From positions 352,001-416,000 of the forward strand of contig OZ251539.1 in NCBI GenBank assembly GCA_965243135.1: 64,000 nt of DNA. The letters are read 5' to 3'. The notes below the pieces were generated by a model. That model searched no databases. It saw only the letters and a program-made list of their open reading frames with translations, and was not told where the DNA came from. The translations under genes were made by a program, and so were the position numbers. Shown one piece after another: positions 9,431 through 53,973 of this stretch. Origin of the DNA: Alphaproteobacteria bacterium. Its GTDB lineage: Bacteria; Pseudomonadota; Alphaproteobacteria; MPNO01; UBA830. The number at the start of each line of letters is the position of its first letter. Positions within the stretch are counted from its first letter, which is position 1.

Positions 9431-9746
9431 CGGCGGGGTGAAAGCTGCCGATCCGCCGAATTTTCTGCCCCGCGGCGATTGCCGCCGAAACCAGCTGATC
9501 CGGAGGACGGCAGCCCCTGCGCCAGTCCAACCCTTCCGTCGCCCCCGGCGACCTTGAAGGCAGCCCTCGATCATTGGTCTGCGGCGAGCTCGTTTTCGTA
9601 GCTGGTTCTCGCCGCAGGGAACGCCCGTCTGTCCGGCTGTCGCATAACTTTGCAGGTTTCAGCTTTCGACTTGCAGACGTTCTTCCGGTCTCCGATAAAA
9701 CGATTCGGCAAGCACGGTGGAAACGGGCGTTCCGACAGGAGGAAGA

Positions 9747-20249: not shown

Positions 20250-20267
20250 GCCGGAAAGAAGGAGTTG

Positions 20268-32500: not shown

Positions 32501-33274
32501 ATCGAACTCCGGGTCATCGGCCGCCTTATCGATGGCCGCATGATACGGTAGCAGGAAGCCATCCGCGAAGTCGGGGCGAATGGAGTGCTGGATCATGCGC
32601 TCCCACAGCATCGCACGCAATTTTCCCTCGAGATCCCTCGTGGCGTAGTCGTACTCCCGTGCGTTGCCGATATCCTTCACGCGCCCGACGCCGATCAGGA
32701 TACGTCCGCCGGGCGAATCCTCCACGAACGGCACCTGCTTGGCGTAGAAGAAGCAGAGCGAGCGCTCTGGTTTGAGATGGCTGGCGAAACAGTCGAGCAG
32801 CGATGTTTGGTTTCGGTACTCCAGAATGAACTTTGTGGGGAATCCCAGATAGGGTTCGCGCTCAAGGTCGACATCGAGCCGGTGGTCTTTGCCAAGGGTC
32901 TCGATCGCTTCGCGAAACATCCAGGCGAAGGGTACGGCGGGCGCAGAGTAGGGCGGATGTCGCAGCGGCGTCCGCTTGAAGTGACCGTGCTTCGTCTCAG
33001 GGCCGCGGTTGTAGGGGTGATCGGCCATGCGAACGTATTCGAAGGGCGCCATGAAAGCGGCGCGCTCAGCAATGCACGATGGCCATTGCTCCTGCGAAAG
33101 ATTCCGGATGCTTTCTCCTGAGACGGAATCCTCCGCGTCGTCGTTCCGGCTTTTCGCAATGCGCTTGAGCTTGAGGCAAGCGCCATTCAGTCGCGGCGCG
33201 GCGCAGACGTTTCCGTCCCATCCGGTATCGTGCCATGGGACGCGGATGGAGATATGTCTCAACGGATAGTCCAT
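29534..33274 (-). CDS. RecD-like SF1B helicase fused to a C-terminal PD-(D/E)xK-like nuclease and a Cys-containing N-terminal domain
   Basis: GPAGAGKTT, VIVDEASM, GDPRQLPPIGAG, AYALTVHKSQGS, LLYTALTR; C-terminal RSKSEVII...YE...YPDFTI...YWEHCG. Confidence 0.9.
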   Translation of the reverse strand: MDYPLRHISIRVPWHDTGWDGNVCAAPRLNGACLKLKRIAKSRNDDAEDSVSGESIRNLSQEQWPSCIAERAAFMAPFEYVRMADHPYNRGPETKHGHFKRTPLRHPPYSAPAVPFAWMFREAIETLGKDHRLDVDLEREPYLGFPTKFILEYRNQTSLLDCFASHLKPERSLCFFYAKQVPFVEDSPGGRILIGVGRVKDIGNAREYDYATRDLEGKLRAMLWERMIQHSIRPDFADGFLLPYHAAIDKAADDPEFDPAEIAAFSPADRLLEFSYGSELVSHDGAIASLLECAKSLRKAESILPGPWDRCLQWIDARLGELWKARGPCPGLGPALKAFGLEFGTFVARILADKAGDNADPWPLVAEMFADPGKHLPERLARSIGETLSSKWSGLPDDRRALLKLVSRFEIALEQATTLYVREERANAGIDASDADLLANPYLFYELTRLTADPVSVWTVDRGVFPDEVVRERHPLPTPTALDAGTDARRVRAFVLKVLEDAASGGSTLLPQDQVVLGIRALPVQPPCQVDADLMNAAKEDFRGAVEEFAMADGAPALQLDRLRKAGTTIRNAIEKRIEGKRLVVEADWRSCLDAHPSIQSFEVPGELKEHGRTEQEAALKELAAARLSVLIGPAGAGKTTLLSVLCSHPGLEASGVLLLAPTGKARVRMEQSAKDLKLKGYTIAQFLSPHRYDGATGRYRLSDKPTDVGARTVIVDEASMLTEEMLAALIQALRGVHRLILIGDPRQLPPIGAGRPFVDIVKRLAPENITEKFPRVGPGYAELTVRYRQAGENREDLRLAEWFSGSPVAAGEDDVFDKVMSNDEDQHIQFVRWETAEEMRSRLLEVLVKELPLKNADDIEGFDTTLGGVPWNGLRFFNPGMGEKIGAAEAAERWQILSPVRSAAHGVPDLNRLIHKQFRQPMVDAARREGWQRRIPRPMGAEEIVYGDKVINLVNTGIPRNGHRKVYPDKDDPYIANGEIGMAVGYFRPRGKPDFRWKLEVEFSSQPGFKYDFTDRDFAEESNAVLELAYALTVHKSQGSQFGTVILVLPNPCRLLSRELLYTALTRQKNRIVILHQGPHAELRKYSSGDRSETARRLTNLFVAPSPVEVDGLFFENNLIHRTARGEMVRSKSEVIIADHLANAGLEYGYEQELTFDGGITNKYPDFTIEDVESGLTFYWEHCGMLHVPGYRRRWEEKLGWYRNHSILRPEEGSGENGTLIVTRDEANGSIDSEKIAAIISDVLG

Positions 33275-33882: not shown

Positions 33883-34421
33883 CAGTGTGATACGGGATCA
33901 CATTATTTTTTCGGGACCGCAACATGCGGTAGGCCCGAGAGGCGAGTCGCGTTTTCATGCCCACTACATATCGAGCAAATTTGCCCGATTACCGGCGGGA
34001 TCAAGGCCAGGGTCCGGGTCCACGAGTACCCCGACCATACCCGCGCCGTTTTCCACGCTTCTGGACGCCTCGCACGCTAACGGACCGATGGGTCTTCGCA
34101 ATGCAAACCAGAAAGCCGTGCAACCGGCTCCGACGCGACCCTCTGGAGCAGAGAGCCGCTTCGTGCCTAACCGCCTCCCCGCAGGCCCGACCATTGGAAC
34201 GGAAACGGCAAGCCGCCAAGGCGAGCCCGAAGTGTTATGATGCTGCAAGTCGAGTACTTACCTGAAAGACATCCCGCCGAGGGCGTTCTTCTACCCCATC
34301 CGAACTCGGGAGATAAGTCGTTATTTGTCCGAAACCGGCAGATAGTCAGTTCCATGTGTCTCAGGAAACGGCTTGCGCCGTTTGTGTTTCGCAAAGCCGC
34401 AAGGCCGACGGAGGTTGCAAC

Positions 34422-36533
34422 ATGAGGATTCGTTCCCGTGAATTACTGCGGCTGGTTGCGATCTTCGTCTCGACGGCAGCGGTCGCAGGGGCGGCGGATC
34501 GGCTTGCTGCCCAGAAACTTGGCGAACCCGCCGCGAAACCCGAAACCGGAATTGCGCTGCCTGACCGCCGCCCGCCGCCGACAACCCAACAGATGCCGGA
34601 CGATGCGGCAGTTGTCGAAATTGAACGCCGCTTCATCGAACTCCAGAACGAAGACATCGAACTTAGGAAGGAAAACAACGAACTCAGGAAGGAAATTCTC
34701 CTGGGCCGCAGCAAATTGGTCGACTGGTGGCTTGCCGCAGTTGCCGTGCTGCTGACCACGTTCGGCGTTATTCTCGCCATTGCCGGTTTTTTCGGTTTCA
34801 GGCGATTTCGCGAAATCGAGAAGGAGGCGAGGGAGAGCGTGAGCGCGGCCGAGCGACAATTCGAAAAGGCTGCGACCCTCGTTGACAACATCAAGACAAC
34901 GAAACAACAGGCCGACTTTATTCTCGGTAGCCTAAAGGAAACTACTTCGGAATTCGTTCGCGACAATCCGGAAAGAGCGGACGAAGTCGCAAGAAGCGTT
35001 CGGGAAAATCCGATGGCGACCTTAGTGGATCGGGCGATCGCAGACGCCATCTCGCTTCAGGGATCGGAAGATTTTGAGGCGGCAATCGAAAAATGGCGAT
35101 CGATTGCCAACCTTTCGGAAGGGACCGATCGAGGCCTCGCGGCGCGGTCGTGGTTTTCCGTCGGATATCTGTGTCAGGAAATTTCCGACACCGAAGCGGC
35201 GATAATGGCCTATGACAGAGCCCTGCAAATGAACCCTGGTTCGGCCGCTGCCTACAACAACCGCGGCAACGCCAATTGCGATCTGGGACTGCACGAAGAG
35301 GCCCTCGCGGATTACGGCGCGGCGATCCGGCTCAGCCCGGACGATGCCGCTGCCTACTACAACCGCGGCGCCGCCAAGAGCGATCTGGGACTGCACGAAG
35401 AGGCCCTCGCGGATTACAGCGAGGCGATCCGGCTCAAGCCGGACTATGCCGAAGCGTACAACAACCGCGGCAACGCCAAGAAAGATCTGGGACTGCACGA
35501 AGAGGCCCTCGCGGATTATAGCGAGGCAATCCGGCTCAAGCCGGACTATGCCGAAGCGTACAGCAACCGCGGCATCGCCAAGAAAGATCTGGGACTGCAC
35601 GAAGAGGCCCTCGCGGATTATAGCGAGGCAATCCGGCTCAAGCCGGACTATGCCGAAGCGTACAGCAACCGCGGCGTCGCCAATTGCGATCTGGGACGGC
35701 ACGAAGAGGCCCTCGCGGATTACGGCGAGGCGATCCGGCTCAAGCCGGACTATGCCGAAGCGTACAACAATCGCGGCAATGCCAAGAGCGATCTGGGACG
35801 GCGCGAAGAGGCCCTCGCGGATTACGGCGAGGCGATCCGGCTCAGGCCGGACTTTGCCGAAGCGTACAACAACCGCGGCATCGCCAGGAGAAATCTGGGA
35901 CAGCACGAGGAGGCCCTCGCGGATTACGGCGAGGCGGTCCGGCTCAAGCCGGACGATGCCGTTGCCTACTGCAACCGAGGCGTCGCCAAGAGCGATCTGG
36001 GACGGCACGAAGAGGCCCTCGCGGATTACGGCGAGGCGATCCGGCTCAAGCCGGACTATGCCGAAGCGTACAACAACCGCGGCAACGCCAAGAAAGATCT
36101 GGGACTGCACGAAGAGGCCCTCGCGGATTACGGCGAGGCGATCCGGCTCAAGCCGGACGATGCCGAAGCGTACAACAACCGCGGCAATGCCAAGAGCGAT
36201 CTGGGACGGCGCGAAGAGGCCCTCGCGGATTACGGCGAGGCGATCCGGCTCAAGCCGGACGATGCCGAAGCGTACAACAACCGAGGCGTCGCCAAGAGCG
36301 ATCTGGGACGGCACGAAGAGGCCATCGCGGATTACGGCGAGGCGGTCCGGCTCAGCCCGGACTTTATCTCTACATATTACAATCGGGGGCGGGCAAATAT
36401 GGAATTGGGACATGCGAGCAAAGCGCGGCAAGACTTCATGACAACGATGGCCTTGGCTCAAGAAAAAGGCGACGAGAAACTTGCCCGTGCCGCGAGAGAA
36501 GCCCTTGGAACATCGCTCGACGAAAACGAATGA
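34422..36533 (+). CDS. Membrane-anchored TPR protein with 11 near-identical 34-aa repeats
   Basis: RBS ggagg; signal-like N-terminus, coiled coil, TM helix WWLAAVAVLL...GFFGF; AEAYxNRGxAxxDLGxHEEALADYxEAIRLKPD repeats of 102 bp. Confidence 0.95.
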   Translation: MRIRSRELLRLVAIFVSTAAVAGAADRLAAQKLGEPAAKPETGIALPDRRPPPTTQQMPDDAAVVEIERRFIELQNEDIELRKENNELRKEILLGRSKLVDWWLAAVAVLLTTFGVILAIAGFFGFRRFREIEKEARESVSAAERQFEKAATLVDNIKTTKQQADFILGSLKETTSEFVRDNPERADEVARSVRENPMATLVDRAIADAISLQGSEDFEAAIEKWRSIANLSEGTDRGLAARSWFSVGYLCQEISDTEAAIMAYDRALQMNPGSAAAYNNRGNANCDLGLHEEALADYGAAIRLSPDDAAAYYNRGAAKSDLGLHEEALADYSEAIRLKPDYAEAYNNRGNAKKDLGLHEEALADYSEAIRLKPDYAEAYSNRGIAKKDLGLHEEALADYSEAIRLKPDYAEAYSNRGVANCDLGRHEEALADYGEAIRLKPDYAEAYNNRGNAKSDLGRREEALADYGEAIRLRPDFAEAYNNRGIARRNLGQHEEALADYGEAVRLKPDDAVAYCNRGVAKSDLGRHEEALADYGEAIRLKPDYAEAYNNRGNAKKDLGLHEEALADYGEAIRLKPDDAEAYNNRGNAKSDLGRREEALADYGEAIRLKPDDAEAYNNRGVAKSDLGRHEEAIADYGEAVRLSPDFISTYYNRGRANMELGHASKARQDFMTTMALAQEKGDEKLARAAREALGTSLDENE

Positions 36534-37560
36534 TGTACACGCCCGGCGCTGCGGATCCCGGCGAGCTTCGGCAGCGGACTCCGAAAACATCCCCCTCTTT
36601 CAATTCAGAAACGCGACGCAAGCGGTCGGAATCATCGGACGCCCGCTCGCGAATGCGCAGCTGCCCGAACAGTTGAAACGCCTGAACGGAAGGCGATGGC
36701 GTTTCGCCGAATGGAGCATGTTCGCTTGAAGAACGAGTGCGAAGTGGCACCCGAAGTTTTGTGCCGCGGAGACGCGGCTCGCCCGAGTGCCGCTGGAGAA
36801 GGAGTGCTCGTGGGTGAATGACGAGAGCTGGGACAGCGGCCCCGCAGCCGGGTGGTCAATCGGGGATCTCGACGGAGCGGAGATCAGTCGCACCGTCGAG
36901 GAGGCGGTCCGCCGCCGACGGCTATCGGATCCGGAGACCCGGGAACCACCCGGCATGCTGCGCGCTCTGGGGCTTCTCGTCGACGATGCCCCGCGGCGCG
37001 CGAGCGTCGTGCTGTTCGGGCGCGCTGAACGCCCGATGATGCCGCGATGCCTGTGCGCTCGCATACGCGGCCGTTCCGAGTATCTGGACGACCGGCGGTT
37101 CAACGGCAACGTCTTCACGCTTCTTGCAAAGGCGGAGCGATTCCTGCTCGATACGCTGCCGATAGCGGGCAGGTTCGAGGCCGGACGATTCGATCGGATC
37201 GACGAGCCGCTGTACCCGCCGCTCGCGACACGCGAGGCTCTCGTGAACGCCTTTTGCCATCAGGACTACGCGATGCGCGGCGGCCTCGTGAACGTGACGG
37301 TCTACGACGACCGCCTGGAGATCGCGTCCTCCGGCAATCTGGCTTCCGGGTCGAGTCCGGGAAAACCGTTCGCGCCGCACGAGCACCTGCCGCCGAACCC
37401 GCGGATCGCCCGCACCTTGCATCTGCGGGGCGTTATCGAGGCGCGCGGAGGCGGAATTCCGAGGATGGCGGAATGGACCTCCTTGGCGGGGCAGCCGCGC
37501 CCGGAATTCGTGGAAAGCGACGATGTCTTGATGGTCCGGTTTCGACGCGGCCGGGCGTAG
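36530..37560 (+). pseudogene. Eroded AlbA_2/RecG-C (HATPase_c_4) type ATP-binding protein, N-terminus decayed
   Basis: YPPLATREALVNAFCHQDY...VYDDRLEIASSG...NPRIA...IEARGGGI...P.F. Confidence 0.75.
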
Positions 37561-38219: not shown

Positions 38220-39443
38220 ATGGCCAGCATGCTGCTTTCCCGACCGGCTGCCTCTTCGGCCGATCCGCTCCCTGTCGCGGACATCCAGACCGGGCGCGCG
38301 ATCTATCTCGACTACGCCGCGACGACGCCGGTAGATCCTTCCGTCGCCAAGACAATGGCTGGATTCCTCACGGTCGACGGCGATTTCGGCAATCCCGCCT
38401 CGACCACCCACGAATTCGGCCGGGTTGCGGCAGACGCCGTTGAGGATGCCCGCGGGGAAGTCGCGAAGCTGCTTGCGGCAAAGCCTCGGGAAATCGTCTG
38501 GACCTCCGGCGCCACCGAAGCGATCAATCTCGCCATGAAGGGAACCGCGCTTGCCCGCGGGGGCCGCGGCGCGCACATCGTCACATCGGCTCTGGAACAC
38601 AAGGCGGTCCTGGACACGGCGGCCTGGCTCGAATCCCAGGGTTTCGACGTCGACCGCATCCGACCCGGCGGCGGAACGGTCACCGCCGAGAGTCTTGCCG
38701 AGGTCTTGCGACCGGACACCGTCCTCGTATCGCTGATGCACGTCAACAACGAGACCGGAACCGTCACCGATATCGCGGAACTCGGTTCCCTGATTCGGGA
38801 GCACGGAGCTTTGTTTCACGTGGACGCGGTGCAAAGCGCCGCCCGGCTTCCTCTCGACGATATTGCCGCCGCAGCCGATCTGATCTCGATCAGTGCGCAC
38901 AAGATGTACGGGCCAAAGGGAATCGGCGCGCTTCACGTTCGCGGACGCCTCGCCGCCGAACTGGAGCCCCTGATGCACGGAGGCGGACACGAACGCGGAT
39001 TGCGCCCGGGAACGCTCCCGGTGCACCAGATCGTCGGCATGGGGCACGCAGCCCGACTTGCGCTCCAGCGGCGCGATAGCGACACGGAACGCGTCGGCGC
39101 GCTCGATGAGCGGCTCCGCGACCACATCGAACGGATCGAGGGCGCCGAGATCAACGGGAACCCCGATTGGCGCGTCCCCGGCATTCTCAGCGTTCATTTT
39201 CCGGGCGTCGAGGCTGAATCGCTGATGGTCGCGCTCGACAATCTTGCGGTCTCCTCAGGTTCCGCCTGCACGTCGGCCGATGTCGAGCCGTCGCATGTCC
39301 TGCGCTCTCTCGGCTACGACGCCGAACGCGCGCTTTCGTCGGTGCGCATAAGCTTCGGGCGGTTCACGACCGCCCGTGAGATCGACTGCGCCGGAGAACT
39401 GCTTCGGGAAACGGTAACAATCCTTCGGAGAATTGCACGATGA
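38220..39443 (+). CDS. dndA: Cysteine desulfurase (DndA/IscS family)
   Basis: YLDYAATTP, TSGATEA, HVDAVQ, SAHKMYGPKG, SSGSAC; ATGA overlap with dndC. Confidence 0.88.
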   Translation: MASMLLSRPAASSADPLPVADIQTGRAIYLDYAATTPVDPSVAKTMAGFLTVDGDFGNPASTTHEFGRVAADAVEDARGEVAKLLAAKPREIVWTSGATEAINLAMKGTALARGGRGAHIVTSALEHKAVLDTAAWLESQGFDVDRIRPGGGTVTAESLAEVLRPDTVLVSLMHVNNETGTVTDIAELGSLIREHGALFHVDAVQSAARLPLDDIAAAADLISISAHKMYGPKGIGALHVRGRLAAELEPLMHGGGHERGLRPGTLPVHQIVGMGHAARLALQRRDSDTERVGALDERLRDHIERIEGAEINGNPDWRVPGILSVHFPGVEAESLMVALDNLAVSSGSACTSADVEPSHVLRSLGYDAERALSSVRISFGRFTTAREIDCAGELLRETVTILRRIAR

Positions 39444-40615
39444 CCGCCACTCGGGACAATGCCGTCGCGACTCTTCCTGATCGACTGGACGCAATCCTCT
39501 GCACGCTCCGGAAGGAGTACCGGAGGAGGCATCGGCATCCTTGGATCGTCGCTTATTCGGGCGGGAAGGATTCCACTTTGCTGCTGCAATTCGTCTGGGA
39601 AACCGTTGCCGGACTTGCGGAGGCGGAACGCAAGCGGCCGGTGTTCGTCGTCGGAAACGACACGCTCGTGGAATCCCCCCTGGTCATCCGGCACCTCCGG
39701 GACTCGCTGGAGACTGTCGGTGCCGCCGCCGAGCGCGAGGGCCTTCCGCTCGAAACCGAAATCACCGAGCCATGCATCGACCAGACTTTCTGGGTCAACG
39801 TCATTGGCCGCGGGTACATCCCTCCGACCAGGAACTTCCGCTGGTGCACCGACAGGATGAAGATCGTACCGACCAACCGGTTGCTGGAACAGGTGGTCCG
39901 TGAAACCGGAGGAGCGATTCTCCTGATCGGCAGCCGCAGGGCCGAGTCGGACAACCGCAAGCGGGCGATGGACCGCCGGAAAGTTTCCGCCCTGCGCATG
40001 AACCCGCACAGCTCCGTCGCCGGATGCAGGATGTTCGCTCCGCTCGCGGACCTCTCCGACGACGATGTGTGGATGACGCTGATGCAACGCAAACCGCCGT
40101 GGGGCGGGACGCATCGACGGTTGATCACGCTCTACAGGAACGCGGGCGGCGGGGAATGCCCTCTGGTGATGACGAAAGAACAGGCTCCGTCCTGCGGAAC
40201 CTCTTCGCCGCGTTTCGGCTGCTGGACCTGCACCGTCGTAACCAAGGACCGCAGCCTCCGCGGGCTGATCGAATCCGGACATGCGGAGGCGGCGAAGATG
40301 GAGGCTCTCGGAGATTTCCGGGAGTGGCTGGTCGAGACTCGCGAGAACAATGCGAACCGGCTGCCGGTCCGGAGGAACGGGAACGCGAAGCGGCGGGCCG
40401 ATGGATCGACGGTCTTCGGCCCGTTCAGGCTGGAAGTCCGGAAGGAAATTTTGAAACGCTTGCGCGATCTTGAAACGGAAATCGGGGAAGATCTCATCCT
40501 TCCTGCGGAAGTCGAATGCATCGAAGACATGTGGTGGCGCGACGAAATCCGCGAGAACGCGCGACAGGCTCTCGACCGGCGCATGTTCGCCGACGCCGAG
40601 GAAGTCGCCGCATGA
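39440..40615 (+). CDS. dndC: DNA phosphorothioation sulfurtransferase DndC (PAPS reductase family)
   Basis: PWIVAYSGGKDS, DTLVESP, FWVNVIGRGYIPP..FRWCTDRMKI, CG.S.RFGCWTCTVV.KD.SL. Confidence 0.9.
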   Translation: MTATRDNAVATLPDRLDAILCTLRKEYRRRHRHPWIVAYSGGKDSTLLLQFVWETVAGLAEAERKRPVFVVGNDTLVESPLVIRHLRDSLETVGAAAEREGLPLETEITEPCIDQTFWVNVIGRGYIPPTRNFRWCTDRMKIVPTNRLLEQVVRETGGAILLIGSRRAESDNRKRAMDRRKVSALRMNPHSSVAGCRMFAPLADLSDDDVWMTLMQRKPPWGGTHRRLITLYRNAGGGECPLVMTKEQAPSCGTSSPRFGCWTCTVVTKDRSLRGLIESGHAEAAKMEALGDFREWLVETRENNANRLPVRRNGNAKRRADGSTVFGPFRLEVRKEILKRLRDLETEIGEDLILPAEVECIEDMWWRDEIRENARQALDRRMFADAEEVAA

Positions 40616-42381
40616 TCAGGGTTACCTCTAAGGTTTCGCTCATTTCCGAGGTGCTGGACTCGGGGCGGCTCGAGGTTCCGTGGCATCAGCGTTACTACGA
40701 CTGGAAGGAGGAGCAGGTCGGCGATCTGCTCTTCGACCTCAGGGACGCCGTGGGCGCCGGCAAGTCGTGCTACTTCCTCGGGTCGATCATGTTGGTCAAG
40801 ATGCCCGGCGGAAGACTGCGGCGGATCAACGACGGCCAGCAGCGCCTGATCACGCTGTCCCTGATCGTCGCCGCGCTTTGCCGCCGGTTCGCACGGAGGC
40901 AGCCTCGCGACGGGAAACGGGAAATGCTCGGGCTGCGTGTGCTGTTCGAACGCTCGCCGAACGAGACCTCCCAGCTGGCGCAGGCGTCGAGATACACGCC
41001 GCGGATTGAACCGCCGAGAAACGACAAGTCGCGCTACGTCCAAGTCATTCGCGGGCACGACATCGGGACGAACGGTCTCCTCACCGCCGCGTGGAGCGTG
41101 ATCGAAATCTTCGTCGACGTGATGAGCACGGCGGACGCCGAGGCGTTCTTCGACTTTCTCATGCAGAAGGTGGAAGTGTCCGTTCTGGACATACCGGCGG
41201 ACGTCGACGCGAATTCCGTCTTCGAGGCGCTGAACGCGCGCGGCAAGCCGCTCGACGACGTCGATCTGATACGGAACCGGCTGTATTCGTATTTCTCGGG
41301 GCCGGAGGAATCGACCCGCCGCGAGACGGTTCACGAGAACCTGGAACGCACCCTCGTGATCGGCCGCCTCGCCAGCAAGGTGCAGGAGTATTTCCGCTGC
41401 TACCTGCAGTGCCGTTACGGCTATCTGCAAAAGGCGCGGTTCTACCGGGACGCGCGCAACAACATTGAAAAAGCGATCGGTTCGCAAAATGCGGCTGATT
41501 ACATCTTTGAGCTCGTCGAAGGGCTGGGGAGAGAGGAGGGGATCGAGCTGTTCCGGACGATCACCTCCACGCGTCCCAACCCGAACTTCGAGAAGCTTTT
41601 GCCGACGGCCTCCGCGAAACGCGGACCGACCGTTCTGTTGGGAGAACTGCAGGGCTACAAGGTGTCGCATCCGTTGGTGTTCGCGTTGCTGCATCGCTTC
41701 ATCGACGGAAACGACCGGAATGCCAAGCGGCGAATCTGGCAGGCGGCGCTGCGCAGCCTGAAAAACCTGTCGTCGTTCGTGATGCGCACTGCCTTTGCCG
41801 CGCCGAAATTCGAGCCGTCCAAGTTCGAAGCCGCTTTCGCGAACATGGCGAAGAGCGTGTTCGAGGGCGACGACTTCCAGTCTCTCGACATCCTCGACGA
41901 TCTTGAGGCGAACGACGAATACAGCGTCATGAACGATGCGAACTTCGTCCGGCGCATGACCGATATCGAGTTCCGCGACGCGAAGAAGGCAAGGCGTTAC
42001 CTGTTCGGCATCAACGCCAGAAACCAGCCGGGGTCGGGGGTGCTGAGAGAAGACCGCTGCAGCCTGGAGCATGTGCTGCCGCAGTCCGAAGACCACTGGG
42101 TGGGATGGCCGGAATTCGGCGATCCGGAACGTTGGGTTCACCGGGCCGGCAACATGGTCGTGGTCGCGGACAAGGAGAACAGGCCGGGTGCCGACTACAA
42201 TCGGGATTACGCCGCGAAGAAGCGGGTCTTTGCCGGCAGCGCGTTGCTCATGCCGCGCGAGGTGGCGGAAGCCTGCGAAGAATGGACGTCCGAGGTGGTG
42301 GAGCGGCGTTCTGCGGAGCTGGCGAAAGAAGCCGCAGAAACCTGGCAGTTCGTGAACAACCAGGGGCATAGAAGGAAATGA
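40612..42381 (+). CDS. DUF262 + DUF1524 protein (GmrSD/SspE-like NTPase-HNH nuclease)
   Basis: VPWHQRYYDW, YFLGSI, NDGQQRLIT, VFEALNARGKPL, SLEHVLPQ...GNMV...N; ATGA overlap with dndC. Confidence 0.88.
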   Translation: MIRVTSKVSLISEVLDSGRLEVPWHQRYYDWKEEQVGDLLFDLRDAVGAGKSCYFLGSIMLVKMPGGRLRRINDGQQRLITLSLIVAALCRRFARRQPRDGKREMLGLRVLFERSPNETSQLAQASRYTPRIEPPRNDKSRYVQVIRGHDIGTNGLLTAAWSVIEIFVDVMSTADAEAFFDFLMQKVEVSVLDIPADVDANSVFEALNARGKPLDDVDLIRNRLYSYFSGPEESTRRETVHENLERTLVIGRLASKVQEYFRCYLQCRYGYLQKARFYRDARNNIEKAIGSQNAADYIFELVEGLGREEGIELFRTITSTRPNPNFEKLLPTASAKRGPTVLLGELQGYKVSHPLVFALLHRFIDGNDRNAKRRIWQAALRSLKNLSSFVMRTAFAAPKFEPSKFEAAFANMAKSVFEGDDFQSLDILDDLEANDEYSVMNDANFVRRMTDIEFRDAKKARRYLFGINARNQPGSGVLREDRCSLEHVLPQSEDHWVGWPEFGDPERWVHRAGNMVVVADKENRPGADYNRDYAAKKRVFAGSALLMPREVAEACEEWTSEVVERRSAELAKEAAETWQFVNNQGHRRK

Positions 42382-42509
42382 TCGGGCGCGGCAGGCGGTG
42401 TTGACGGCCGAGCCGCAGTTTCGGATTTGCAGAGATCGCCAAAAACTGGTTTCTTGGACGGAAGCGGGCAAGTAAGGTGCGGCCCGCTAATCCCGAAAGG
42501 AAGGACACT

Positions 42510-43037
42510 ATGAGAAACAAGTGCATGATCGAGGCTGCCCTGATTGCGGCGTTCGTTCTTGGAGCGTGCAATCATCAGTATCGTCCCAAGGTGATACCTG
42601 TCACGACACAGTTCGATCCTCATGAGGTTAGTTATATCAACGACGTGGGGGATAATGAGATAAAAGGGCAAGCGTTTTTGAGGCAGAAAGGTGGTGGGAT
42701 AGTTACATGCGCTGGGTTCGAAGTCTACCTTATTCCAAGAGGGGCTTATTCGAAGGAAAGGTTTTTTATTATCTACGGGACAACGGAAAGGGTCGCGCAT
42801 GCGCAATTGAGAAGGAGTAGCGTTCCAAGTGACCCAGAACCTATGTACTTGCAAATGGTAAAATCTACCAAGTGCGACGCACAAGGTGATTTTACTTTCT
42901 CTGGTGTAGCTGACGGTAGTTATTTTGTCGCAACGACCGTGTATTGGCAGGTGGGTAAAATTGAGCAGGGATTCCGACTGATGTCGCCGGTTACAGTTAA
43001 GGGTGAAGAAACAAGGGCTCTCATCATCTCTATTTGA
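42510..43037 (+). CDS. Putative lipoprotein, low GC
   Basis: Lipobox LGAC; IKGQAFLRQKGG...CDAQGDFTFSGV...YFV. Confidence 0.8.
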   Translation: MRNKCMIEAALIAAFVLGACNHQYRPKVIPVTTQFDPHEVSYINDVGDNEIKGQAFLRQKGGGIVTCAGFEVYLIPRGAYSKERFFIIYGTTERVAHAQLRRSSVPSDPEPMYLQMVKSTKCDAQGDFTFSGVADGSYFVATTVYWQVGKIEQGFRLMSPVTVKGEETRALIISI

Positions 43038-43330
43038 GGGGATTTCCAAGCAGGTTATTGAGAAACGGGCCTCATAGCGAGGCGCGGCCGCTTTCGTTCA
43101 TCTTGTTCCTCGCGTCATCGCCTGCCGGATGGGTTTTCCTTATTCATCGTTTCCGGTCATGGTGCTTCCACAGAGCTGATGCCGGGGCCGGGGATTTATC
43201 CTGGACACCGACATACCGAAGTCGTACGGCTTGATCAGGGAACAACGGGTCGGCGCTAACCGCGAAAATTGGACAGATGATTGACGGGATTGATAGGATG
43301 TGAATGGCAAGAGATTTCGGGGAAGGAAAT

Positions 43331-45013
43331 ATGCGACGGTTTCGTTTTTCCGCGATGGTGCCGTTTGCGGCGGCAGCGGTGCTGTCTGCTGCGACCTCCG
43401 TCAATGCGATAGTCGATAGTGAAAACGAACTTTGGAGCGCCGTGCGGATATCGGGCAATCCCGATACCGCCCAGCGGTCGCCTGCCGTGGGCGCGAACCC
43501 GAACGTTCCGCAAAGCGCTGGCCGAACCGCGGTTCGTCTGGCGTCCGATACGACTTCGCCAGCGGTGCGGCCGGGCGGCGGCGCACCGGAACGCAAGGCC
43601 GATGTTGCGAACGGAAAAGGCGAAACTTCTCTCCGCCTCGTGGCCGAAGCGCATCGATCCTCCGCTGGCTTGCTATGGAGTGCCGCTCGGACGCCGGGCA
43701 ATCTGGAAATCGTCCGCCGGCTGCTTGCCTCGGGCGTGAATCCGAACATTCCGGACGATGCGGGCCGAACAGCGGTTCATCGGGCAGCGAGCGGCGGCGG
43801 TCCTCGGATACTCGCTGCGCTGCTTCGCGCGGGCGGCAAACCGAACGTTCGTGATCGCGACGGCAACGCGCCGTTGCACATCGCCATCAAGGCGGGCGGG
43901 AGCGAAGGCAAAGTCGAGGCCGTCGAGGCGCTTCTGGCGGCCGGAGCGGATCCATGCCTCAAGGATGCAACGGGGCTGACACCGTACCGCATGGCCGCGG
44001 ACGGCGGCCCCATCCGCCGCGCTCTTGGCCGGGCCGGGGGCAACGAGTGGACGTGCGGGAGAAACGGAAAGCGCACCATGCGGGTTGCGGCTCGCACCAA
44101 CGTGAGGTCGGGACCGGGACCGCACCACGCCAGGATCGGAACGCTAGACGCTGGCTACGAGGTCAAGGTGGCGGGGAAAATCGGTGACTGGTTGCGCATT
44201 GAGATGCCGGGCGGAGAAGGATATGTCCGCGTCGAGCGGATGATCGATACGGCGTTCGTCGCCAGCCTTGAGCCGAAATGCGATGGATTTTCCCACGAGT
44301 GCTTGGATTGCGGGCTCTTGCCTGACAGGCCCGCATGCCGGATCTGCCGGGACTTCCCCGTTTGCTGGAGACAGCTCTCCAATCGTCCGGAATGCTATCT
44401 GCTGGTTCCCAATAATGATGGTCGCAATCGGTCCCTGAATTGGTCGGGATCCTGTTCCGGCGGCGTCGCCAACGGCCAAGGGAAGCTATCGTCGTCACGG
44501 AACTCGATTGTAGAGACCGGAATGCTCGTGGGCGGCAAGAAACATGGACCATGGATCGGTGAATTTTTGAGTTCTTTTTCCTCGGCACTAGATTTTGCTA
44601 CCTATGTGGACGGAAAGAGAGATGGGCTGTGGATCAGCAGGTCCAAGCTCAGGATAGGCAAGAGCAACGAGGTGAGCACGAATATTAGCGCCTATGTGAA
44701 CGGCAAGGAAGATGGAAAATCATCGTTCAGTGTGAGAAATGGTGGTGCCTCCATGGGCGCTTATGTAAACGGCAAGAGGCACGGACAATGGGTCGATGTA
44801 TCCAACTCCCTCGTCACCGTAGGCGCCTATGTAAACGGCAAGAGGCACGGACGATGGGTTGAACTGTTTGGATTAAGCCGACCCGGCGGAGTAGTCTCGA
44901 CAGGTGTCTATGTGGACGGTCGGAAGCACGGACGATGGAAGAGACGCTCGATCACGACCTGCGAAATCGTCGAATACGAATCGGGCTGGTTTGCAAGAAA
45001 AAGAAAATGCTGA
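43331..45013 (+). CDS. Secreted mosaic protein: ankyrin repeats + bacterial SH3 + Cys-rich segment + MORN-like repeats
   Basis: GRTAVHRAA, GNAPLHIA; TNVRSGPG...DWLRI...GYV; repeated YVNGKRHGxW. Confidence 0.85.
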   Translation: MRRFRFSAMVPFAAAAVLSAATSVNAIVDSENELWSAVRISGNPDTAQRSPAVGANPNVPQSAGRTAVRLASDTTSPAVRPGGGAPERKADVANGKGETSLRLVAEAHRSSAGLLWSAARTPGNLEIVRRLLASGVNPNIPDDAGRTAVHRAASGGGPRILAALLRAGGKPNVRDRDGNAPLHIAIKAGGSEGKVEAVEALLAAGADPCLKDATGLTPYRMAADGGPIRRALGRAGGNEWTCGRNGKRTMRVAARTNVRSGPGPHHARIGTLDAGYEVKVAGKIGDWLRIEMPGGEGYVRVERMIDTAFVASLEPKCDGFSHECLDCGLLPDRPACRICRDFPVCWRQLSNRPECYLLVPNNDGRNRSLNWSGSCSGGVANGQGKLSSSRNSIVETGMLVGGKKHGPWIGEFLSSFSSALDFATYVDGKRDGLWISRSKLRIGKSNEVSTNISAYVNGKEDGKSSFSVRNGGASMGAYVNGKRHGQWVDVSNSLVTVGAYVNGKRHGRWVELFGLSRPGGVVSTGVYVDGRKHGRWKRRSITTCEIVEYESGWFARKRKC

Positions 45014-45393
45014 CAGAGGTTCCCGGATCCGCATGGTCCGGCGTCTGCCGTCGTCGGCGGTCGAGCTTTCGGAAGCGGAACGGATAGCGCGAGGTTTGCA
45101 GGGATGCGCATCGCAGCCAGAGACGAAACAAGGGCATTGCGCCGCGACGTTCGCGCTCAATGTGAAACCGTGCGTCGGCGCGCCTTTCAGGCACCGTTAG
45201 CGCGTTCGGGCAACCTCTCGGCGATCTCCCCGCTTTCGGGCGGCCGGTTGCGGTCTTTTGATCGGGAGGCCCCGGACCTGTTCGCTTGCTGCACGGTGAA
45301 TTCCGTCCGAATCGGAGCGAGACGCTCCGTCATCGTTCCTGCTGGCTTCCCTGGGCGTTTGAGAGAGAGAAAGGTTTCCTGGATATCTCTCGG

Positions 45394-46776
45394 ATGACCG
45401 ACTCGAGCGACGCTTTGCAGTTGCGCCATCGCGCCGAAAAACGGCTCGGGGTGCCGGCCTCATTGCACGACTACCAGTGGGAAGGCGTCTCCTTTCTGTA
45501 CCGGTCCCGCTCCGCGCTTCTCGCCGACGAGATGGGCCTCGGGAAGACGGTGCAGACTTCGGTTGCGCTCGCGCTTCTCCTCAACGGACGAAGCGGCGTC
45601 GGCCGCGTCCTGATCGTCGCGCCGGCGTCCCTGACGACGAACTGGATGGACGAACTCGAAACCTGGGCGCCCACCATCGCCGCCCGGCGCATGCAGGGAA
45701 ACGCCCGCGCCCGCGAGGCGTTCTACCTGCTCCCGATCCCGGTCCTCGTCGGATCCTACGAGCAGATCCGGCAAGACGGCCTTGACCGTATCCCGGCCAA
45801 CACCTTCGACCTCGTCGTCCTCGACGAGGCACAACGGATCAAGAACAGGAACTCCGCCACGGCGCTGGCCTGCCGGCTGCTGCCGCGGACGCGTTCTTGG
45901 GCGCTTTCGGCCACCCCGCTCGAGAACGACCCCAGCGACGTGGTCTCGATCCTGAGTTTTCTCGATCCGGAAATCAGACCCGGCGAATCCCCGTTTCGCC
46001 TGCGCGCCCGTCTCGACGCGATGATGCTGCGACGGCGCAAGCTTGAGGTCCGGGCCGAGTTGCCGCCGGTCATCCTTCAGGATCTCAGGCTCGATCTCTC
46101 CGGGGTTCAGCGCAATGCCTATGACGAGCTGTGGGAAAAGCGCGCGGAGACGATCAGAGAAGGAGCGGAGGGCGGCGACCCCGGCGCGGCCATACTCGGC
46201 CTGATCACGCGACTCAAGATGGTCTGCAATTTCGTCGAGGATGCCTCTTCCAAATTCGAGGCGCTCGAGGTGATCGCCGAAGGGGCGGGGAAGTCCGGCA
46301 GGATTCTCGTGTTCTCGCAGTTCGTGAGAACGCTGCAGTGGGCTTCCGACCGGTTGAAGCTTCCACACGGATTTCTTACGGGGGCGATGACGCCCGCCGA
46401 AAGGCAGGCGGCCATCGACGAATTCAGGCACGGGCCGGCGCCGAGAGTCCTTTTGGTATCCCTCCGCGCCGGCGGCGTGGGCCTCAATCTGGGCGAGGCC
46501 ACCCATGTGGTCCTCTTCGACAGGTGGTGGAACCCGGCCGTCGAGAACCAGGCGATCTACCGCGCGCACCGCTTCGACCGCGAAGAGCCGTTGCATGTCG
46601 TCCGATTTCTGGCTACGGATACGATCGAAGAGCGCATCTCTGAGATCCTGGAGCAAAAGGAGCTTCTGTTCGACGAGGTCGTGGAGACGGCCGGGGCCGA
46701 AGCGCGGCGCTTTACCCGCAATGAATTGATCCGTATTCTTGAGATCTCGAATCTCTTTCCGGCGTCGGAGGCGTAA
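45394..46776 (+). CDS. Stand-alone SNF2-family ATPase/helicase
   Basis: LLADEMGLGKT, VLDEAQRIKN, SATPLEN, LVFSQF, GGVGLNL, DRWWNPAVENQA..RAHR. Confidence 0.93.
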   Translation: MTDSSDALQLRHRAEKRLGVPASLHDYQWEGVSFLYRSRSALLADEMGLGKTVQTSVALALLLNGRSGVGRVLIVAPASLTTNWMDELETWAPTIAARRMQGNARAREAFYLLPIPVLVGSYEQIRQDGLDRIPANTFDLVVLDEAQRIKNRNSATALACRLLPRTRSWALSATPLENDPSDVVSILSFLDPEIRPGESPFRLRARLDAMMLRRRKLEVRAELPPVILQDLRLDLSGVQRNAYDELWEKRAETIREGAEGGDPGAAILGLITRLKMVCNFVEDASSKFEALEVIAEGAGKSGRILVFSQFVRTLQWASDRLKLPHGFLTGAMTPAERQAAIDEFRHGPAPRVLLVSLRAGGVGLNLGEATHVVLFDRWWNPAVENQAIYRAHRFDREEPLHVVRFLATDTIEERISEILEQKELLFDEVVETAGAEARRFTRNELIRILEISNLFPASEA

Positions 46777-46779
46777 GTC

Positions 46780-47607
46780 ATGGCGAAGATCGTCGCATAC
46801 AGGGAAATACCGCTCGACAGCTTGACCATAGGCAAGGGACAAGCGGGTACGCATACGGAGTCGCGCATCAAGGAGCTCGATGAACTGGCCGAGAGCATTA
46901 AGGTGCAGGGTTTGCTGCAACCGATTGTCGTCTGCGAGGCACGGGAAGCCGGAAAATGGGAAATTCTTGCCGGTCAGCGGCGTTTCCTCGCGCACAGGCA
47001 TCTGAAAAGGGAGACGATATCCGCTGCGGTTCTCGACGGCCGCATCGACCCGACCGACGCGAAGGCCATTTCGGTCACCGAGAACCTGGTAAGGCTTCAG
47101 CTTTCCGGGAAGGAACTAACGGACAGTATCCGGGTTCTGTACAATAGGTACGCAAGCGTAAGAGCAGTGGCGGAGGCGACCGGCATTCCCCAAGCGAAAA
47201 TCAGACGCTACCTGAAATCCGACCGGCTCATTCCTGAGTTGAAGAGAATGGTCGACGATAACGAAATCGATATCAACGCTGCCTTGGATGCCCAAGACGC
47301 TGCCGACGACGACGGACAACCGGATCCCGACGTCGCCGTTAAGTTGGCGTGGGAAATGAAGCCGATGACGAACGTGCAGCGGCGGAAGCTCGCCGATAAG
47401 CGCAGGGAAAATCCGGAGAAGCCGATCGACGACGTTATCGAGGAAGCGAAGACCGGGGTGAAAGTGATCCAGGTCGTCGCGACAGTGACGCAGACAACGC
47501 ACAGCGCCATCCGGAGATACGCGAGAGAAGAAAAAACCAACCAGGATGAGGCTGTGGTCGCCCTTATCGAAGAGGCGTTGACCGGCCACGGTCTCTTGGA
47601 ACAGTAG
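46780..47607 (+). CDS. ParB/Srx N-terminal domain protein with HTH
   Basis: LAESIKVQGLLQPIVV, ILAGQRRFLA, ENLVR; no parA neighbour. Confidence 0.88.
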   Translation: MAKIVAYREIPLDSLTIGKGQAGTHTESRIKELDELAESIKVQGLLQPIVVCEAREAGKWEILAGQRRFLAHRHLKRETISAAVLDGRIDPTDAKAISVTENLVRLQLSGKELTDSIRVLYNRYASVRAVAEATGIPQAKIRRYLKSDRLIPELKRMVDDNEIDINAALDAQDAADDDGQPDPDVAVKLAWEMKPMTNVQRRKLADKRRENPEKPIDDVIEEAKTGVKVIQVVATVTQTTHSAIRRYAREEKTNQDEAVVALIEEALTGHGLLEQ

Positions 47608-48333
47608 ATGCTGCCGGGACTGAACGCGCTCGAGCTCGGGCGCCTTCGGCTGTCGGTCGGGTACGGGACGCACAAGAAGGGGCGCCCGTTATCCCCGGCC
47701 GAGGTCGGCCAACTGCTTCGCCAAGCCCGCAGCGCCGGAGTCACTCTCAAGGATTGCGCGAAAGCGATCCAGCTGAACGGGACGGGCCATATCGGCCGTT
47801 TTCTTCGCATTCTGGAATTGCCCCAGGACGTCCTTCACCTGGTGGATTGGGGGCATCCCGGCGACGGCGTCGCGTTTTCCTGCGCCGTGGAAATGACAAG
47901 TCTGGAGAACGACGACGACAAGCGTGCCGTCGCCCGATCGATTCTTGCCCATGGTCTGGAAAGCAAGGAGGTTCGTCAGGTTGCGCAACTCCGAAAACGT
48001 TCCGGGCGTTTCATCGGCGAATGCGTTGAAGAGATCCTAGGCATGCGTCCGACGGTCGAGAAGCGTTATGTCTTCATCGGGGTGGTCACTGAAGAAAGCC
48101 TTGCAAATGCTCTCGGCGAGCTCACGCAGCGCGAACGGGATGCGATTTTGGATTCCGGTATCGAACGGCTTGAGCTTTCCGGCGGCTCCGGCCGGCTCGG
48201 GCAAAGATTTTTCACCCTTGTCGGCGATGACCGGTTCGGGGCCTCGATGGAGCGCATCGGCAAGGACAACATTGAGACGATGCTTCTGGCGCAGATTGGC
48301 GAGGCGATCGACGATGCCGCCGCCCATTGTTGA
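47608..48333 (+). CDS. Hypothetical protein with a ParB-C/HTH-like helical segment
   Basis: Starts immediately after the previous stop; LSPAEVG...CAKAI...IGRFLRILELPQDV resembles the ParB HTH region. Confidence 0.7.
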   Translation: MLPGLNALELGRLRLSVGYGTHKKGRPLSPAEVGQLLRQARSAGVTLKDCAKAIQLNGTGHIGRFLRILELPQDVLHLVDWGHPGDGVAFSCAVEMTSLENDDDKRAVARSILAHGLESKEVRQVAQLRKRSGRFIGECVEEILGMRPTVEKRYVFIGVVTEESLANALGELTQRERDAILDSGIERLELSGGSGRLGQRFFTLVGDDRFGASMERIGKDNIETMLLAQIGEAIDDAAAHC

Positions 48334-49348
48334 CGTGTTCGCCAGCGGAACTGTTCGCCTCGGTTCGAAGGTCGTGTGCGACGGATACGCGGAGGGATAT
48401 CCGTTCAGGGTTCAGACGCATGTGCACGAAGACCACATGTCGGAATTCAACAGGAGCAAAGGCGAGCAGGACTTTCTGCTGAGTCCCGAGACGCATGAAC
48501 TGTTGATTGCGGAGCGCAATGCGGACCTCGAATATCGCGACAATTTCATCCGGGTCGCGCGCGGCGCCGAGCGGGAACTCGACGACGGTTCAAGGCTCTC
48601 GCTCGTTGCGTCCAACCACATGCTCGGAGCTTGCCAAGTGGCTCTGGAACTCCCCGACGGAATGCGGATCGGCTATTCCAGCGACTTCGGATGGCCGCTC
48701 GACGAAGTCATCGCGGTGGACGAGCTTGTGGTCGACAGCACATATGGCAGCCCCCGGAGAAGCGTGCGTGGTTATACCCAGGACGAAGCCGAAGCGAGCC
48801 TTTTCGAGATCGTTCACGAACGCCTTCGACATGGCTCCGTGCATATCCATGCCTATTCGGGAACGATCGAGCGGGTTCTGTCCGTTCTCGGAGATAACGT
48901 TGGCGTTCCCATCGTGGCCTCCCGGCAACTGATCCAGAGAGTCGAGGTATATCAGAAGCATGGATTCGCGCCGGGAAGCCTGGAGGAGCTCCGGTCGGAC
49001 GAGGCCCGGCGCGCGATAGCGCACGGCTCCTATGTCCGGCTTTATTCGAAGGGCGACGGCTTCGGCAACGAGCGCCTGGAAGGCACGACGATCACCTGCA
49101 GCGCCTATATGGTGGACACCCGCAACCCGTTGATGATTTTTTCGGACCGGTCCTACAGAGTCGCATTGTCCAACCATGCGGATTTCGAGGAAACGCTCGC
49201 TTACGTCGAAGCGACCGGCGCCAAGCGGGTCGTTACGGACAACACGCGGAGTCATGGCTGCGAACTCGCCATAGCCATCAATGAGCGGCTCGACGACGTG
49301 CGGGCCGTTCCGTCCAGCAACTGTCCGGCTTCTTCCCGGAATACGTGA
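48314..49348 (+). CDS. MBL-fold, beta-CASP-like nuclease
   Basis: THVHEDH, NHMLGA, GYSSDF, VDSTYG, LSNHADF. Confidence 0.85.
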   Translation: MPPPIVDVFASGTVRLGSKVVCDGYAEGYPFRVQTHVHEDHMSEFNRSKGEQDFLLSPETHELLIAERNADLEYRDNFIRVARGAERELDDGSRLSLVASNHMLGACQVALELPDGMRIGYSSDFGWPLDEVIAVDELVVDSTYGSPRRSVRGYTQDEAEASLFEIVHERLRHGSVHIHAYSGTIERVLSVLGDNVGVPIVASRQLIQRVEVYQKHGFAPGSLEELRSDEARRAIAHGSYVRLYSKGDGFGNERLEGTTITCSAYMVDTRNPLMIFSDRSYRVALSNHADFEETLAYVEATGAKRVVTDNTRSHGCELAIAINERLDDVRAVPSSNCPASSRNT

Positions 49349-50450: not shown

Positions 50451-50755
50451 CAGCTTCCATGACCGCCGGCGGTCATCGCCCTCCGAAATGGCCGGAGGTT
50501 CTTTTGCCTTTCCCGGACCGACGACCTGTTGCCTGCGGTTTCAGGCTATCGAGCGACGACTGCACCCGGCGGTCGCCAACCCCGCCGCCGCCCGGAGCAA
50601 AGCGGAGGCCGCGCCCAGGACTTGGTGTGGAAATCAGCGTACCAAGTGCTTGATCCGAATCGGCAGGTAGCGATGATGAAGCGGTTCGGAGTCGATCGAT
50701 ACTCGGGCGGTCTCGGCATCGAGCGCGCTAAAGCAACGGGGAAGGGATCCTGGCG

Positions 50756-52452: not shown

Positions 52453-52590
52453 GATAGTCACTGCTGCATGGCGACTTCGTCGAGGTTGGGCCGAATCGGC
52501 GCGTGCGCGTCGGCGCAGTCCTGATCGTCGGCGTTTTCCGGCTTTCTGGAACGGGCCGGAACGATCCGGCAAATTTGTCGCGACAGTTCA

Positions 52591-53550: not shown

Positions 53551-53973
53551 GCAAGGGTTGCGGCGTTGCGGAAACGGTTTCAGAAGGATGGCGGACGGCG
53601 GCGAATTCGGAGCTCGCGGCGTGGCGGCCGATGCGCGAGGTGAACCAGCAAGACGTCGGTCGAGGAAGAACGGCAAACGGAGGTCGCCATGCCAACGGCG
53701 CGTGTGCGGCGACGCCGTGAGCGCGAGAATTTCGCCGACGGCTTCATGCGGGCCGGCGCGAGCGGCCGCTATCCGCAGGTCGCTTTTTTCATACTCGCCG
53801 AAGGAACGAGCGCAAACCCGGTACGATTCGCAACCCTCTCTGCGCGGATTGGTTTCCTGACGGCATTCGCCCGGCGAGTCGTGAGCTCGTCTCTTTCATT
53901 TCCGGGCGAACGCCGGAACCCATAACGGAATCCGCACGGCAGGTTCCGGCAACGCTTGACGGATGAGCATCGC

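Follow-up and report, generated by a model that had tools for sequence, protein, structure and literature searches.

A recurrent DndC-DUF262/DUF1524 gene pair as the candidate core of a phosphorothioation-type defence module

The 64,000-nucleotide stretch of DNA analysed here (the window; positions 352001-416000 of the source genome, an Alphaproteobacteria bacterium, assembly GCA_965243135.1, contig OZ251539.1) carries three co-directional genes, termed A, C and G, which encode a cysteine desulfurase, a short DndC and a protein with DUF262 and DUF1524 domains. A short DndC together with a DndI/HEC-06-like G, usually preceded by its own cysteine desulfurase, recurs in loci from many phyla, and the best reading of these loci is that the pair is the invariant core of a module undescribed as a system until now. 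We consider it somewhat better than an even bet (a probability of about 0.55) that the trio makes up the first part of a larger defence module of the phosphorothioate (PT) type, one that comprises several genes, moves horizontally, is independent of DndD and DndE and is built on a complex of DndC and G.

Results

A short DndC and G form a conserved core

A first-pass annotation of the window had reported three intact genes at 38220-42381, joined by two ATGA overlaps and including a DndC of 391 residues. All of this was confirmed; the overlaps lie at the two ends of C (A/C at 39440-39443, C/G at 40612-40615).

One genome per species was scanned with C (569 relatives) and the best 80 loci (L007-L086; C identity 61-78%) were kept. 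All 80 are from metagenome-assembled genomes, the record titles of which name at least 11 phylum-level groups. Gene content was tallied by searching the open reading frames (ORFs) of each locus with the window proteins, and by all-against-all clustering of ORFs within ~7 kb. C is present in 80/80 loci, G in 74 and A, immediately 5' of C, in 65; the full A-C-G arrangement is found in 60, which bears out the earlier proposal that the trio is conserved. Wherever G is present (74 loci) it adjoins C. Because C-G recurs in 74 loci, and A-C-G in 60, the arrangement is far beyond chance. In 21 of 67 loci the putative stop of C and start of G share 4 bp, and in none are the two more than 92 bp apart.

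A model of the C-G complex scored 0.76, compared to 0.00 for the best of three controls. The score passes the mark for binding, which 116 of 157 solved complexes and 2 of 215 mismatched pairs also attain; these counts are rough since the alignments used were our own. Runs of the model share at least 84% of contacts, with a partner pLDDT (predicted local distance difference test) of at least 82. On the C side the predicted interface comprises residues 105-115, 143-155, 314-318 and 354-391; on the G side, residues 97, 126-170, 246-250, 308-329 and 360-376. Neither a single-sequence nor a 40-row profile search found a relative of C in the PDB, and the pass is therefore unlikely to derive from a remembered complex. 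The model supports, as a prediction, physical binding of C and G, and it fits the first-pass description of the DUF262 protein as 'partner and effector'.

The core is largely independent of DndD and DndE

Profile searches for DndD, DndE, DGQHR/DndB, SspB and SspC gave no match in the window and placed all matches elsewhere in the source genome; their absence from the window, noted earlier, thus stands. Forty large ORFs of the window were scanned with Pfam, without the models specific to DndFGH, and no DndFGH gene was named; PF08747 has no match in the source genome. At the trio, DndC is encoded with neither a DndD/CxC ATPase (the CxC clade having had no search by its own model) nor, anywhere in the window, a DndD-DndE pair; nor does the locus hold SspB, SspC and SspD together with an adjacent SspE.

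The presence of these genes in other genomes that carry the core was determined for the 40 of the 80 loci with chromosome-level records. The DndD profile, TIGR03185, matches 17 of these 40 genomes at E<=1e-3, a level at which weak matches also arise in 10 of 14 control genomes; two matches pass the cut-off and 23 genomes have none. The two that pass belong to a separate canonical dndCDE cluster (L087) and to a PbeC-like gene (L072). DndE is found in three carriers, SspB in 11, and neither of the two in 26. Given that a layout without DndD and DndE occurs on chromosome-level assemblies of many phyla, we take the absence to be real.

The source genome itself tells a more complicated story. DndD profile matches occur at 323881, 2395980, 4724750 and 5450683, of which the only strong one is a 320-residue C-terminal fragment; DndE matches occur at 324636 and 5428691 (two orphan copies), and DGQHR matches at 320599-321801 and 3064084. 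The fragment is part of a decayed classical dnd cluster at ~320500-325100 (L001, L097), 66 kb upstream of the trio, where a DGQHR gene is followed by minus-strand dndA fragments fused to the dndD piece, and then by dndE. At the collinear place a genome of the same genus (G044; L096) has an intact dndA/dndBCDE set, and by this comparison the source genome has lost ~4.5 kb between dndA and dndD. An ssp cluster lies 3.7 Mb from the trio (4080249-4088199; L105) and consists of a divergent sspA, then sspB, sspC in two frames (743 and 421 residues) and an intact sspD, with a PbeA/helicase-like gene after it; the split of sspC is either a frameshift or an assembly error. The source genome therefore holds three PT-related loci. 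The first-pass annotation had named the presence of dndDE elsewhere, or their recent deletion, as fatal to an independent trio: a truncated dndD, two orphan dndE and an ssp cluster are indeed present here, but in the other genomes the trio is independent of them.

A further region (5420000-5438000; L106) is a partial duplicate of the island that lacks dndD. Its orphan dndE shares 88% identity with the one at 324.6 kb, and the region also contains a piece of an ankyrin gene (89%), a methyltransferase/SmaI-like pair 97% identical to window positions 50578-52558, and a 1.6-kb repeat with many copies in the genome, one at about window position 26611-28074, that is probably an insertion sequence element.

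Among 40 relatives of the source genome, C matched only the canonical DndC of G044 (44%) and, marginally, a 56-residue segment in G079 (E 5.4e-4). This near-absence implies that the module was acquired horizontally.

Two alternative gene blocks follow the core

In the window, G is followed by a SNF2-family helicase gene and by genes for a ParB_N/helix-turn-helix (HTH) protein, a 241-residue protein (y241) and a putative nuclease of the metallo-beta-lactamase (MBL) fold (x340). Homologues of these occur in 47, 47, 48 and 46 of the 80 loci, respectively, with at least one member in 50; the SNF2 gene often abuts or overlaps the stop of G. In 23 other loci the place of the SNF2 block is taken by a DndB-like DGQHR gene (99.9 bits on Pfam DndB, 87.8 bits on TIGR03187), in 21 of these with a small adjoining GIY-YIG-like gene. 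One or other block is thus found in 73 loci; of the seven with neither, at least two end soon after C/G. The window block spans 45394-49348, and the proposal that the module is a minimal one of three genes does not survive these counts. No conserved ABC ATPase emerged near the module from the clustering of ORFs within ~7 kb. Other arrangements exist: in L072, A-C-G is followed by PbeC-like, FtsK-like and AAA genes. Two of the loci that lack G also deserve mention; in L063 a fusion of an N6_N4 methyltransferase to an Mrr-like nuclease (560 residues; 8109-9791) lies between C and the DndB-like gene, and in L060 the DndB-like gene comes directly after C.

The DndB-like genes, a PT-associated putative methyltransferase (TIGR04096; 445-538 bits) close to the core in 9/80 loci, and homologues of a PT-DNA-binding endonuclease in 6/80 loci as well as in the window, together support a PT context for the core. 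In the window the endonuclease gene (HNH_2, 2e-11) comes right after the module. It was considered as a core member and rejected on account of its occurrence in just six loci.

The SNF2 protein matches SNF2-rel_dom (1.4e-44) and Helicase_C (3e-20), and the PADLOC models ZorD and DpdE-like (~1e-57). The ATG of y241 follows the TAG of the ParB gene immediately. The alignment of x340 homologues to the long ORF begins near its residue 84, and the translation contains an HxHxDH-type motif; the protein has a score of 8e-14, below cut-off, for the ligase-associated exonuclease TIGR04122, and an Atlas feature score of 0.97 to MBL fold and RMMBL clusters. By these matches x340 resembles ligase-associated beta-CASP exonucleases. 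It has no match in the plasmid collection.

The regularity of the block raises an alternative to a DndC-G complex as the modifying unit. The downstream genes, in the window the SNF2 ATPase and the ParB-like gene, could be analogues of DndD and DndE, in which case the unit is one of seven genes and G is its restriction nuclease only. A dedicated ATPase is part of all characterised PT pathways of the Dnd, Ssp and BREX-4 kinds (PMC12707154, PMC12914056), and the frames of SNF2, ParB, y241 and x340 often abut or overlap and stay linked even where the block is inverted (L020 and L036). Nonetheless, the DndB-like block is without a P-loop ATPase, seven loci have neither block, and G, placed on C by the model, is the one partner that C has consistently. 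We regard this alternative as improbable.

G is most closely related to DndI and HEC-06

G matches GmrSD_N (DUF262) at 7e-24 and GmrSD_C (DUF1524) at 5.5e-17. It has the architecture of DndI, with an N-terminal DUF262 domain that contains DGQQR and a C-terminal DUF1524 His-Me domain within ~590 residues, and residues DGQQR 74-78, H487, N514 and N530 are invariant among 50 sequences. PADLOC assigns G to HEC-06 (2e-66), followed by 'Orf5' (1.5e-47) and SspE (1e-14); the match to HEC-06 is full-length and includes both DGQQR and the nuclease motif (PDLC04155, 2.2e-66; PDLC04157, 2.7e-60 over residues 4-579 of 589). A profile of the G family searched against the PDB found DndI (9jfl) at 5.9e-28 and then SspE at 6.4e-17. 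The AlphaFold2 (AF2) model of G (pLDDT 91.8) has DndI as its best fold match (template modelling score, TM, 0.63), then SspE, then BrxU, and the structural alignment to DndI gives 17-18% identity. The earlier notion of an Ssp hybrid is not upheld by these comparisons, G being nearer to HEC-06 and DndI than to SspE. For the same reason, and because SspB is absent from 29 of the 40 carriers, G as the SspE of a distant ssp cluster was rejected. DndI is coupled to dndBCDE, G to dndA-dndC only.

The strength of the HEC-06 match invites a second alternative, about as improbable as the first: G may be a self-sufficient enzyme of the HEC-06/GmrSD type (type IV-like), with A and C either inert or reliant on partners elsewhere. 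For HEC-06 one gene is enough to protect (bioRxiv 10.1101/2024.01.29.577857), defence genes are commonly nested within one another, and partners in the form of two dndE copies and sspA/BCD are present in the source genome. If this were so, then the association of G with C would be incidental; against it stand the adjacency of the two across many phyla, the 4-bp overlaps, the predicted complex, the carriers that have neither DndE nor SspB, and the invariance of the catalytic residues of C.

C is a member of a short DndC clade

C scores 338.9 bits on the NCBIfam DndC equivalog TIGR03183 (cut-off 290.4), spanning positions 10-338 of the 447 in the profile. Compared to a 498-residue canonical DndC that adjoins DndD and DndE, it is 38% identical over residues 57-417 and is without ~80-110 C-terminal residues. 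As expected of DndC, it is a PP-loop ATP pyrophosphatase with conserved cysteines: SGGKDS 40-45 and Cys136, 240, 252, 261 and 264 are invariant in 40 sequences, all five cysteines and the PP-loop are also present in canonical DndC, and C likely carries a [4Fe-4S] cluster. Its AF2 model (pLDDT 74.8) matches the folds of TtuA, NcsA, LarE and adenosine-5'-phosphosulfate (APS) reductase at E ~6e-6, which are PP-loop, iron-sulfur sulfurtransferases. PADLOC gives SspD at 5e-6 and BrxP at 2e-9.

The desulfurase A belongs to Aminotran_5 (8e-78; class-V aminotransferase fold) and matches PADLOC SspA (1e-144) and DndA (2e-142). It provides the linked desulfurase expected of a Dnd locus, though it falls below the NCBIfam equivalog cut-offs (472.7 bits on IscS; 403.8 bits on DndA, cut-off 480).

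The nearest annotated relative of C is a 355-residue DndC (49.6% identity) on a Mesorhizobium plasmid. There the order is cysteine desulfurase, dndC, AAA ATPase, DndE, small protein, AAA ATPase and FtsK-like gene, and the cluster includes DndD, DndE and Pbe-like genes. Burkholderia and Aureimonas plasmids, which with the former make up the three plasmid contexts examined, have dndC, a small protein, a DndD-like gene and an FtsK-like gene. The compactness of C, which the first-pass annotation noted, is therefore shared with DndC proteins encoded beside DndD, DndE and Pbe genes; as a sign of independence from DndD/E it was rejected, and the length is a trait of the clade. A FastTree phylogeny of 63 rows was built from every third module row and the library proteins P0004-P0059 of at least 340 residues. 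In it the 13 sampled module rows and one context-less representative (P0020) form one clade with a Shimodaira-Hasegawa (SH)-like support of 99. Phyla are intermixed within the clade, which is placed among mostly short DndC, a group that includes the three genes adjoining DndD-type genes on plasmids, and apart from long canonical DndC.

More broadly, 414 clusters of a 50%-identity representative library match C at E<=1e-30, with diverse lengths. In PLSDB, 2435 plasmid records match C, all at less than 60% identity, and hence none is a member of the module clade. Of these 2435 records, 1813 are typed as conjugative, mostly from Escherichia, Salmonella and Klebsiella.

The fold matches of C prompt a third alternative, less probable again than the two above, in which A and C perform another sulfur or adenylation reaction (thiolation of a base, RNA or a nucleotide) and G responds to the product. 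The nearest solved folds are tRNA thiolases and other PP-loop sulfurtransferases, and C has neither the C-terminal residues of canonical DndC nor DndD/E beside it; yet C clears the DndC equivalog cut-off with all five canonical cysteines, groups with short DndC that include those beside DndD-type genes, and has neighbours that are DNA-acting and PT-associated. That the trio is a functionless leftover of a dndACDE-pbe type cluster is very improbable: the source genome does contain decayed PT loci, the module is interrupted in the window and G is split in a few loci, but the three genes are intact, and the recurrence of A-C-G in 60 loci of many phyla with invariant active sites requires purifying selection.

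The module and its surroundings in the window

Coordinates are given in Table 1. The DNA between G and the SNF2 gene is an insertion of 2.9 kb, as determined from DNA collinearity with L008, L012, L014 and L009. Window positions 38297-42335 and 45430-49314 are collinear with L008 5858-9920 and 10131-14035; between the two blocks are 211 bp in L008 compared to ~3.1 kb in the window. The GC-content of the insertion is 0.58, that of the genome 0.65. Scans for promoters and terminators performed at chance, with 3 promoter-like sites where 2.9 were expected and 18 terminator-like ones where 14.4 were.

Table 1. Positions of the core genes, the insertion and the downstream genes in the window
Feature	Position	Strand	Remarks
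A, IscS/DndA/SspA-type cysteine desulfurase, 407 aa	38220-39443	+	Aminotran_5, PADLOC SspA/DndA; start ATG 38220, stop-to-stop ORF from 37941
C, short DndC, PP-loop sulfurtransferase, 391 aa	39440-40615	+	TIGR03183
G, DndI/HEC-06-like, 589 aa	40612-42381	+	DUF262 (DGQQR NTPase) and DUF1524 (His-Me nuclease); start ATG 40612, ORF from 40516
Insertion between G and SNF2	42382-45393		lipoprotein-like ORF and ankyrin/SH3 protein
Lipoprotein-like ORF	42477-43037		likely ATG 42510; lipobox-like N-terminus read from sequence
Ankyrin/SH3 protein	43304-45013		Ank and SH3 domains; C-terminal YV.GK.HG-type repeat units
SNF2-family helicase core	45394-46776	+	ORF from 45286; likely start ATG 45394
ParB_N and HTH protein, 275 aa	46780-47607	+	ParB_N 9e-14; TIGR00180 63.9 bits (cut-off 58.45)
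y241, 241 aa, weak ParB-HTH likeness	47608-48333	+	HTH_ParB E 0.004, below cut-off
x340, MBL-fold, beta-CASP-like putative nuclease, ~340 aa	48314-49348	+	ORF from 48068
PT-DNA-binding HNH restriction endonuclease (accessory), 326 aa	49470-50450	+	NCBIfam NF045808 267.3 bits (cut-off 180)

Downstream of the HNH gene are a type II restriction-modification pair (50756-52452), in which an N6_N4 methyltransferase of 312 residues overlaps a SmaI-family endonuclease of 253 residues, and a gene for a 1165-residue protein with N-terminal SIR2_2 and C-terminal DUF4020 (53956-57453), probably a defence gene. Directly upstream of A lie genes for a UvrD/AAA_30-type helicase (1246 residues; 29534-33274, minus strand), a tetratricopeptide repeat (TPR) protein (725 residues; 34356-36533, plus strand) and a HATPase_c_4 protein (257 residues; 36787-37560, plus strand), none of which is conserved beside the module in the 80 loci. 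Further upstream are Sel1-repeat and ankyrin-repeat ('eukaryote-like') proteins and an ArdC antirestriction/metallopeptidase (1654-2760, 10577-11569, 12495-13409 on the minus strand, 18976-20079 and 20265-21644). The repeat-protein and ArdC genes fit a mobile island of a host-associated bacterium.

Discussion

A putative route to PT modification can be proposed. A would draw sulfur from cysteine and hand it to C, which as a PP-loop ATP pyrophosphatase with cysteines suited to a [4Fe-4S] cluster would activate the DNA backbone phosphate and add the sulfur. G, docked on the C-terminal helix of C, would stand in for DndD/DndE or SspB/SspC, engaging DNA by means of its NTP-driven DGQQR domain and nicking it with its His-Me domain. 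Like DndI and SspE, G may then read the PT mark, sparing self and attacking unmarked DNA. The downstream block would act in restriction or regulation, as a back end that can be swapped: SNF2-ParB-like-HTH-MBL in the window, GIY-YIG with a DndB-like gene, or a Pbe-like set, in other loci.

In its full form the proposal is that a DndC-G holoenzyme writes and reads PT without DndD/DndE, SspB/SspC or BrxC, G being at once DNA-targeting NTPase, modification nickase and self/non-self nuclease, and that with plug-in back ends it has spread horizontally through uncultured bacteria of at least 11 phyla. This would add a fifth PT pathway to Dnd, Ssp, Tdp and BREX-4. We advance it tentatively, and judge its chances to be slightly short of even.

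Several observations weigh against a DndD/E-independent module. In previous work dndA, C, D and E are essential (PMC8569181), DndD/CxC and DndE are an obligate pair (PMC10853773), and PT modification by BREX type 4 still requires the ATPase BrxC (PMC12914056). The closest annotated relative of C, on the Mesorhizobium plasmid, adjoins DndD and DndE. TIGR03185 may overlook ATPases of the CxC clade, and completeness figures for the 40 carrier genomes are not at hand. In the source strain, help in trans from an orphan dndE or from the ssp cluster is possible, and the insertion interrupts what would otherwise be a continuous operon. Four of the 80 loci have a split G and six have none; in the phmmer alignment the PT sensor of DndI, Y25, pairs with His25 of G, beside a near-invariant Trp24; and since HEC-06, the PADLOC family that G matches best, confers defence on its own (bioRxiv 10.1101/2024.01.29.577857), G may need no partner.

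If the module does make PT, then it is a second route, besides Tdp, to sulfuration of the DNA backbone without an ABC ATPase-DndE scanner, and the DUF262/DUF1524 family gains a role in modification beside that in restriction. It would also explain Dnd genes from sponges. In metagenomes of sponges the Dnd system is reported to be enriched, "though not functionally complete" (PMC5099237). Genes for dndA, dndC and a "dndB-like" DUF262/DUF1524 protein are described from sponge Thaumarchaeota (PMC6790972, PMC7848895). The carriers described here are apparently sponge symbionts, to judge from the taxon names in record titles, two of which appear in the abstracts of sponge genome notes.

The best reading of why such a module has gone unnoticed is that it is missed by gene surveys keyed on dndCD. 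PT systems have been defined by adjacent dndCD (PMC6459918, PMC8569181); other surveys required a DndD/CxC-DndE core (PMC10853773) or a P-loop NTPase by DndC (PMC12914056), and in PMC10853773 missing DndD/DndE are blamed on poor assemblies. PMC12914056 does mention a DUF262 neighbour of dndC, and its supplementary neighbourhood tables list DUF262 12 times and DUF1524 three times (file 4), and DUF262 a further two times (file 5), so a few such neighbours had already been tabulated. Literature searches returned no paper that presents the module as a system, although the supplements of PMC10853773 may list such an architecture.

Known systems can be compared with the module in turn. The restriction part of Tdp is reportedly TdpAB, a translocase-nuclease, and includes no DUF262/DUF1524 protein. 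TdpABC, which sets a precedent, is similar in being compact, tdpC alone being enough for PT synthesis without partners of the DndD/E type (PMC12914056). BrxP/BrxC of BREX type 4 likewise combines an enzyme of the 3'-phosphoadenosine-5'-phosphosulfate (PAPS) reductase family with a desulfurase, that of the host, and makes PT outside Dnd and Ssp clusters; it differs in its need for BrxC and in the DUF4007 fusion of BrxP (PMC12914056), and C matches BrxP only weakly. SspABCD-SspE also pairs a PAPS reductase-family enzyme and a desulfurase with a DUF262/DUF1524 PT sensor, but the matches of C to SspD and of G to SspE are weak and SspB/SspC are not in the locus. HEC-06 shares with G the DGQQR and EH..P nuclease motifs, both needed for defence (bioRxiv 10.1101/2024.01.29.577857); it was tested as a stand-alone gene and occurs embedded in Hma systems, whereas G is operonic with DndC and a desulfurase. 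DndCDEA-PbeABCD (PMC6459918) and its plasmid kin share the short DndC clade and the co-directional desulfurase-dndC pair; in the window, which lacks DndD, DndE and Pbe genes, G occupies the place of DndD/DndE. IscS-DndBCDE-DndI of Salmonella Cerro 87 (PMC11662687; PDB 9JFL) has in common with the trio a desulfurase, a DndC and a DGQQR/His-Me protein of ~590 residues. There DndI is a PT-sensing nuclease that acts with IscS-DndBCDE; the trio locus has no DndB, DndD or DndE, and G is instead coupled to C, to which it is predicted to bind.

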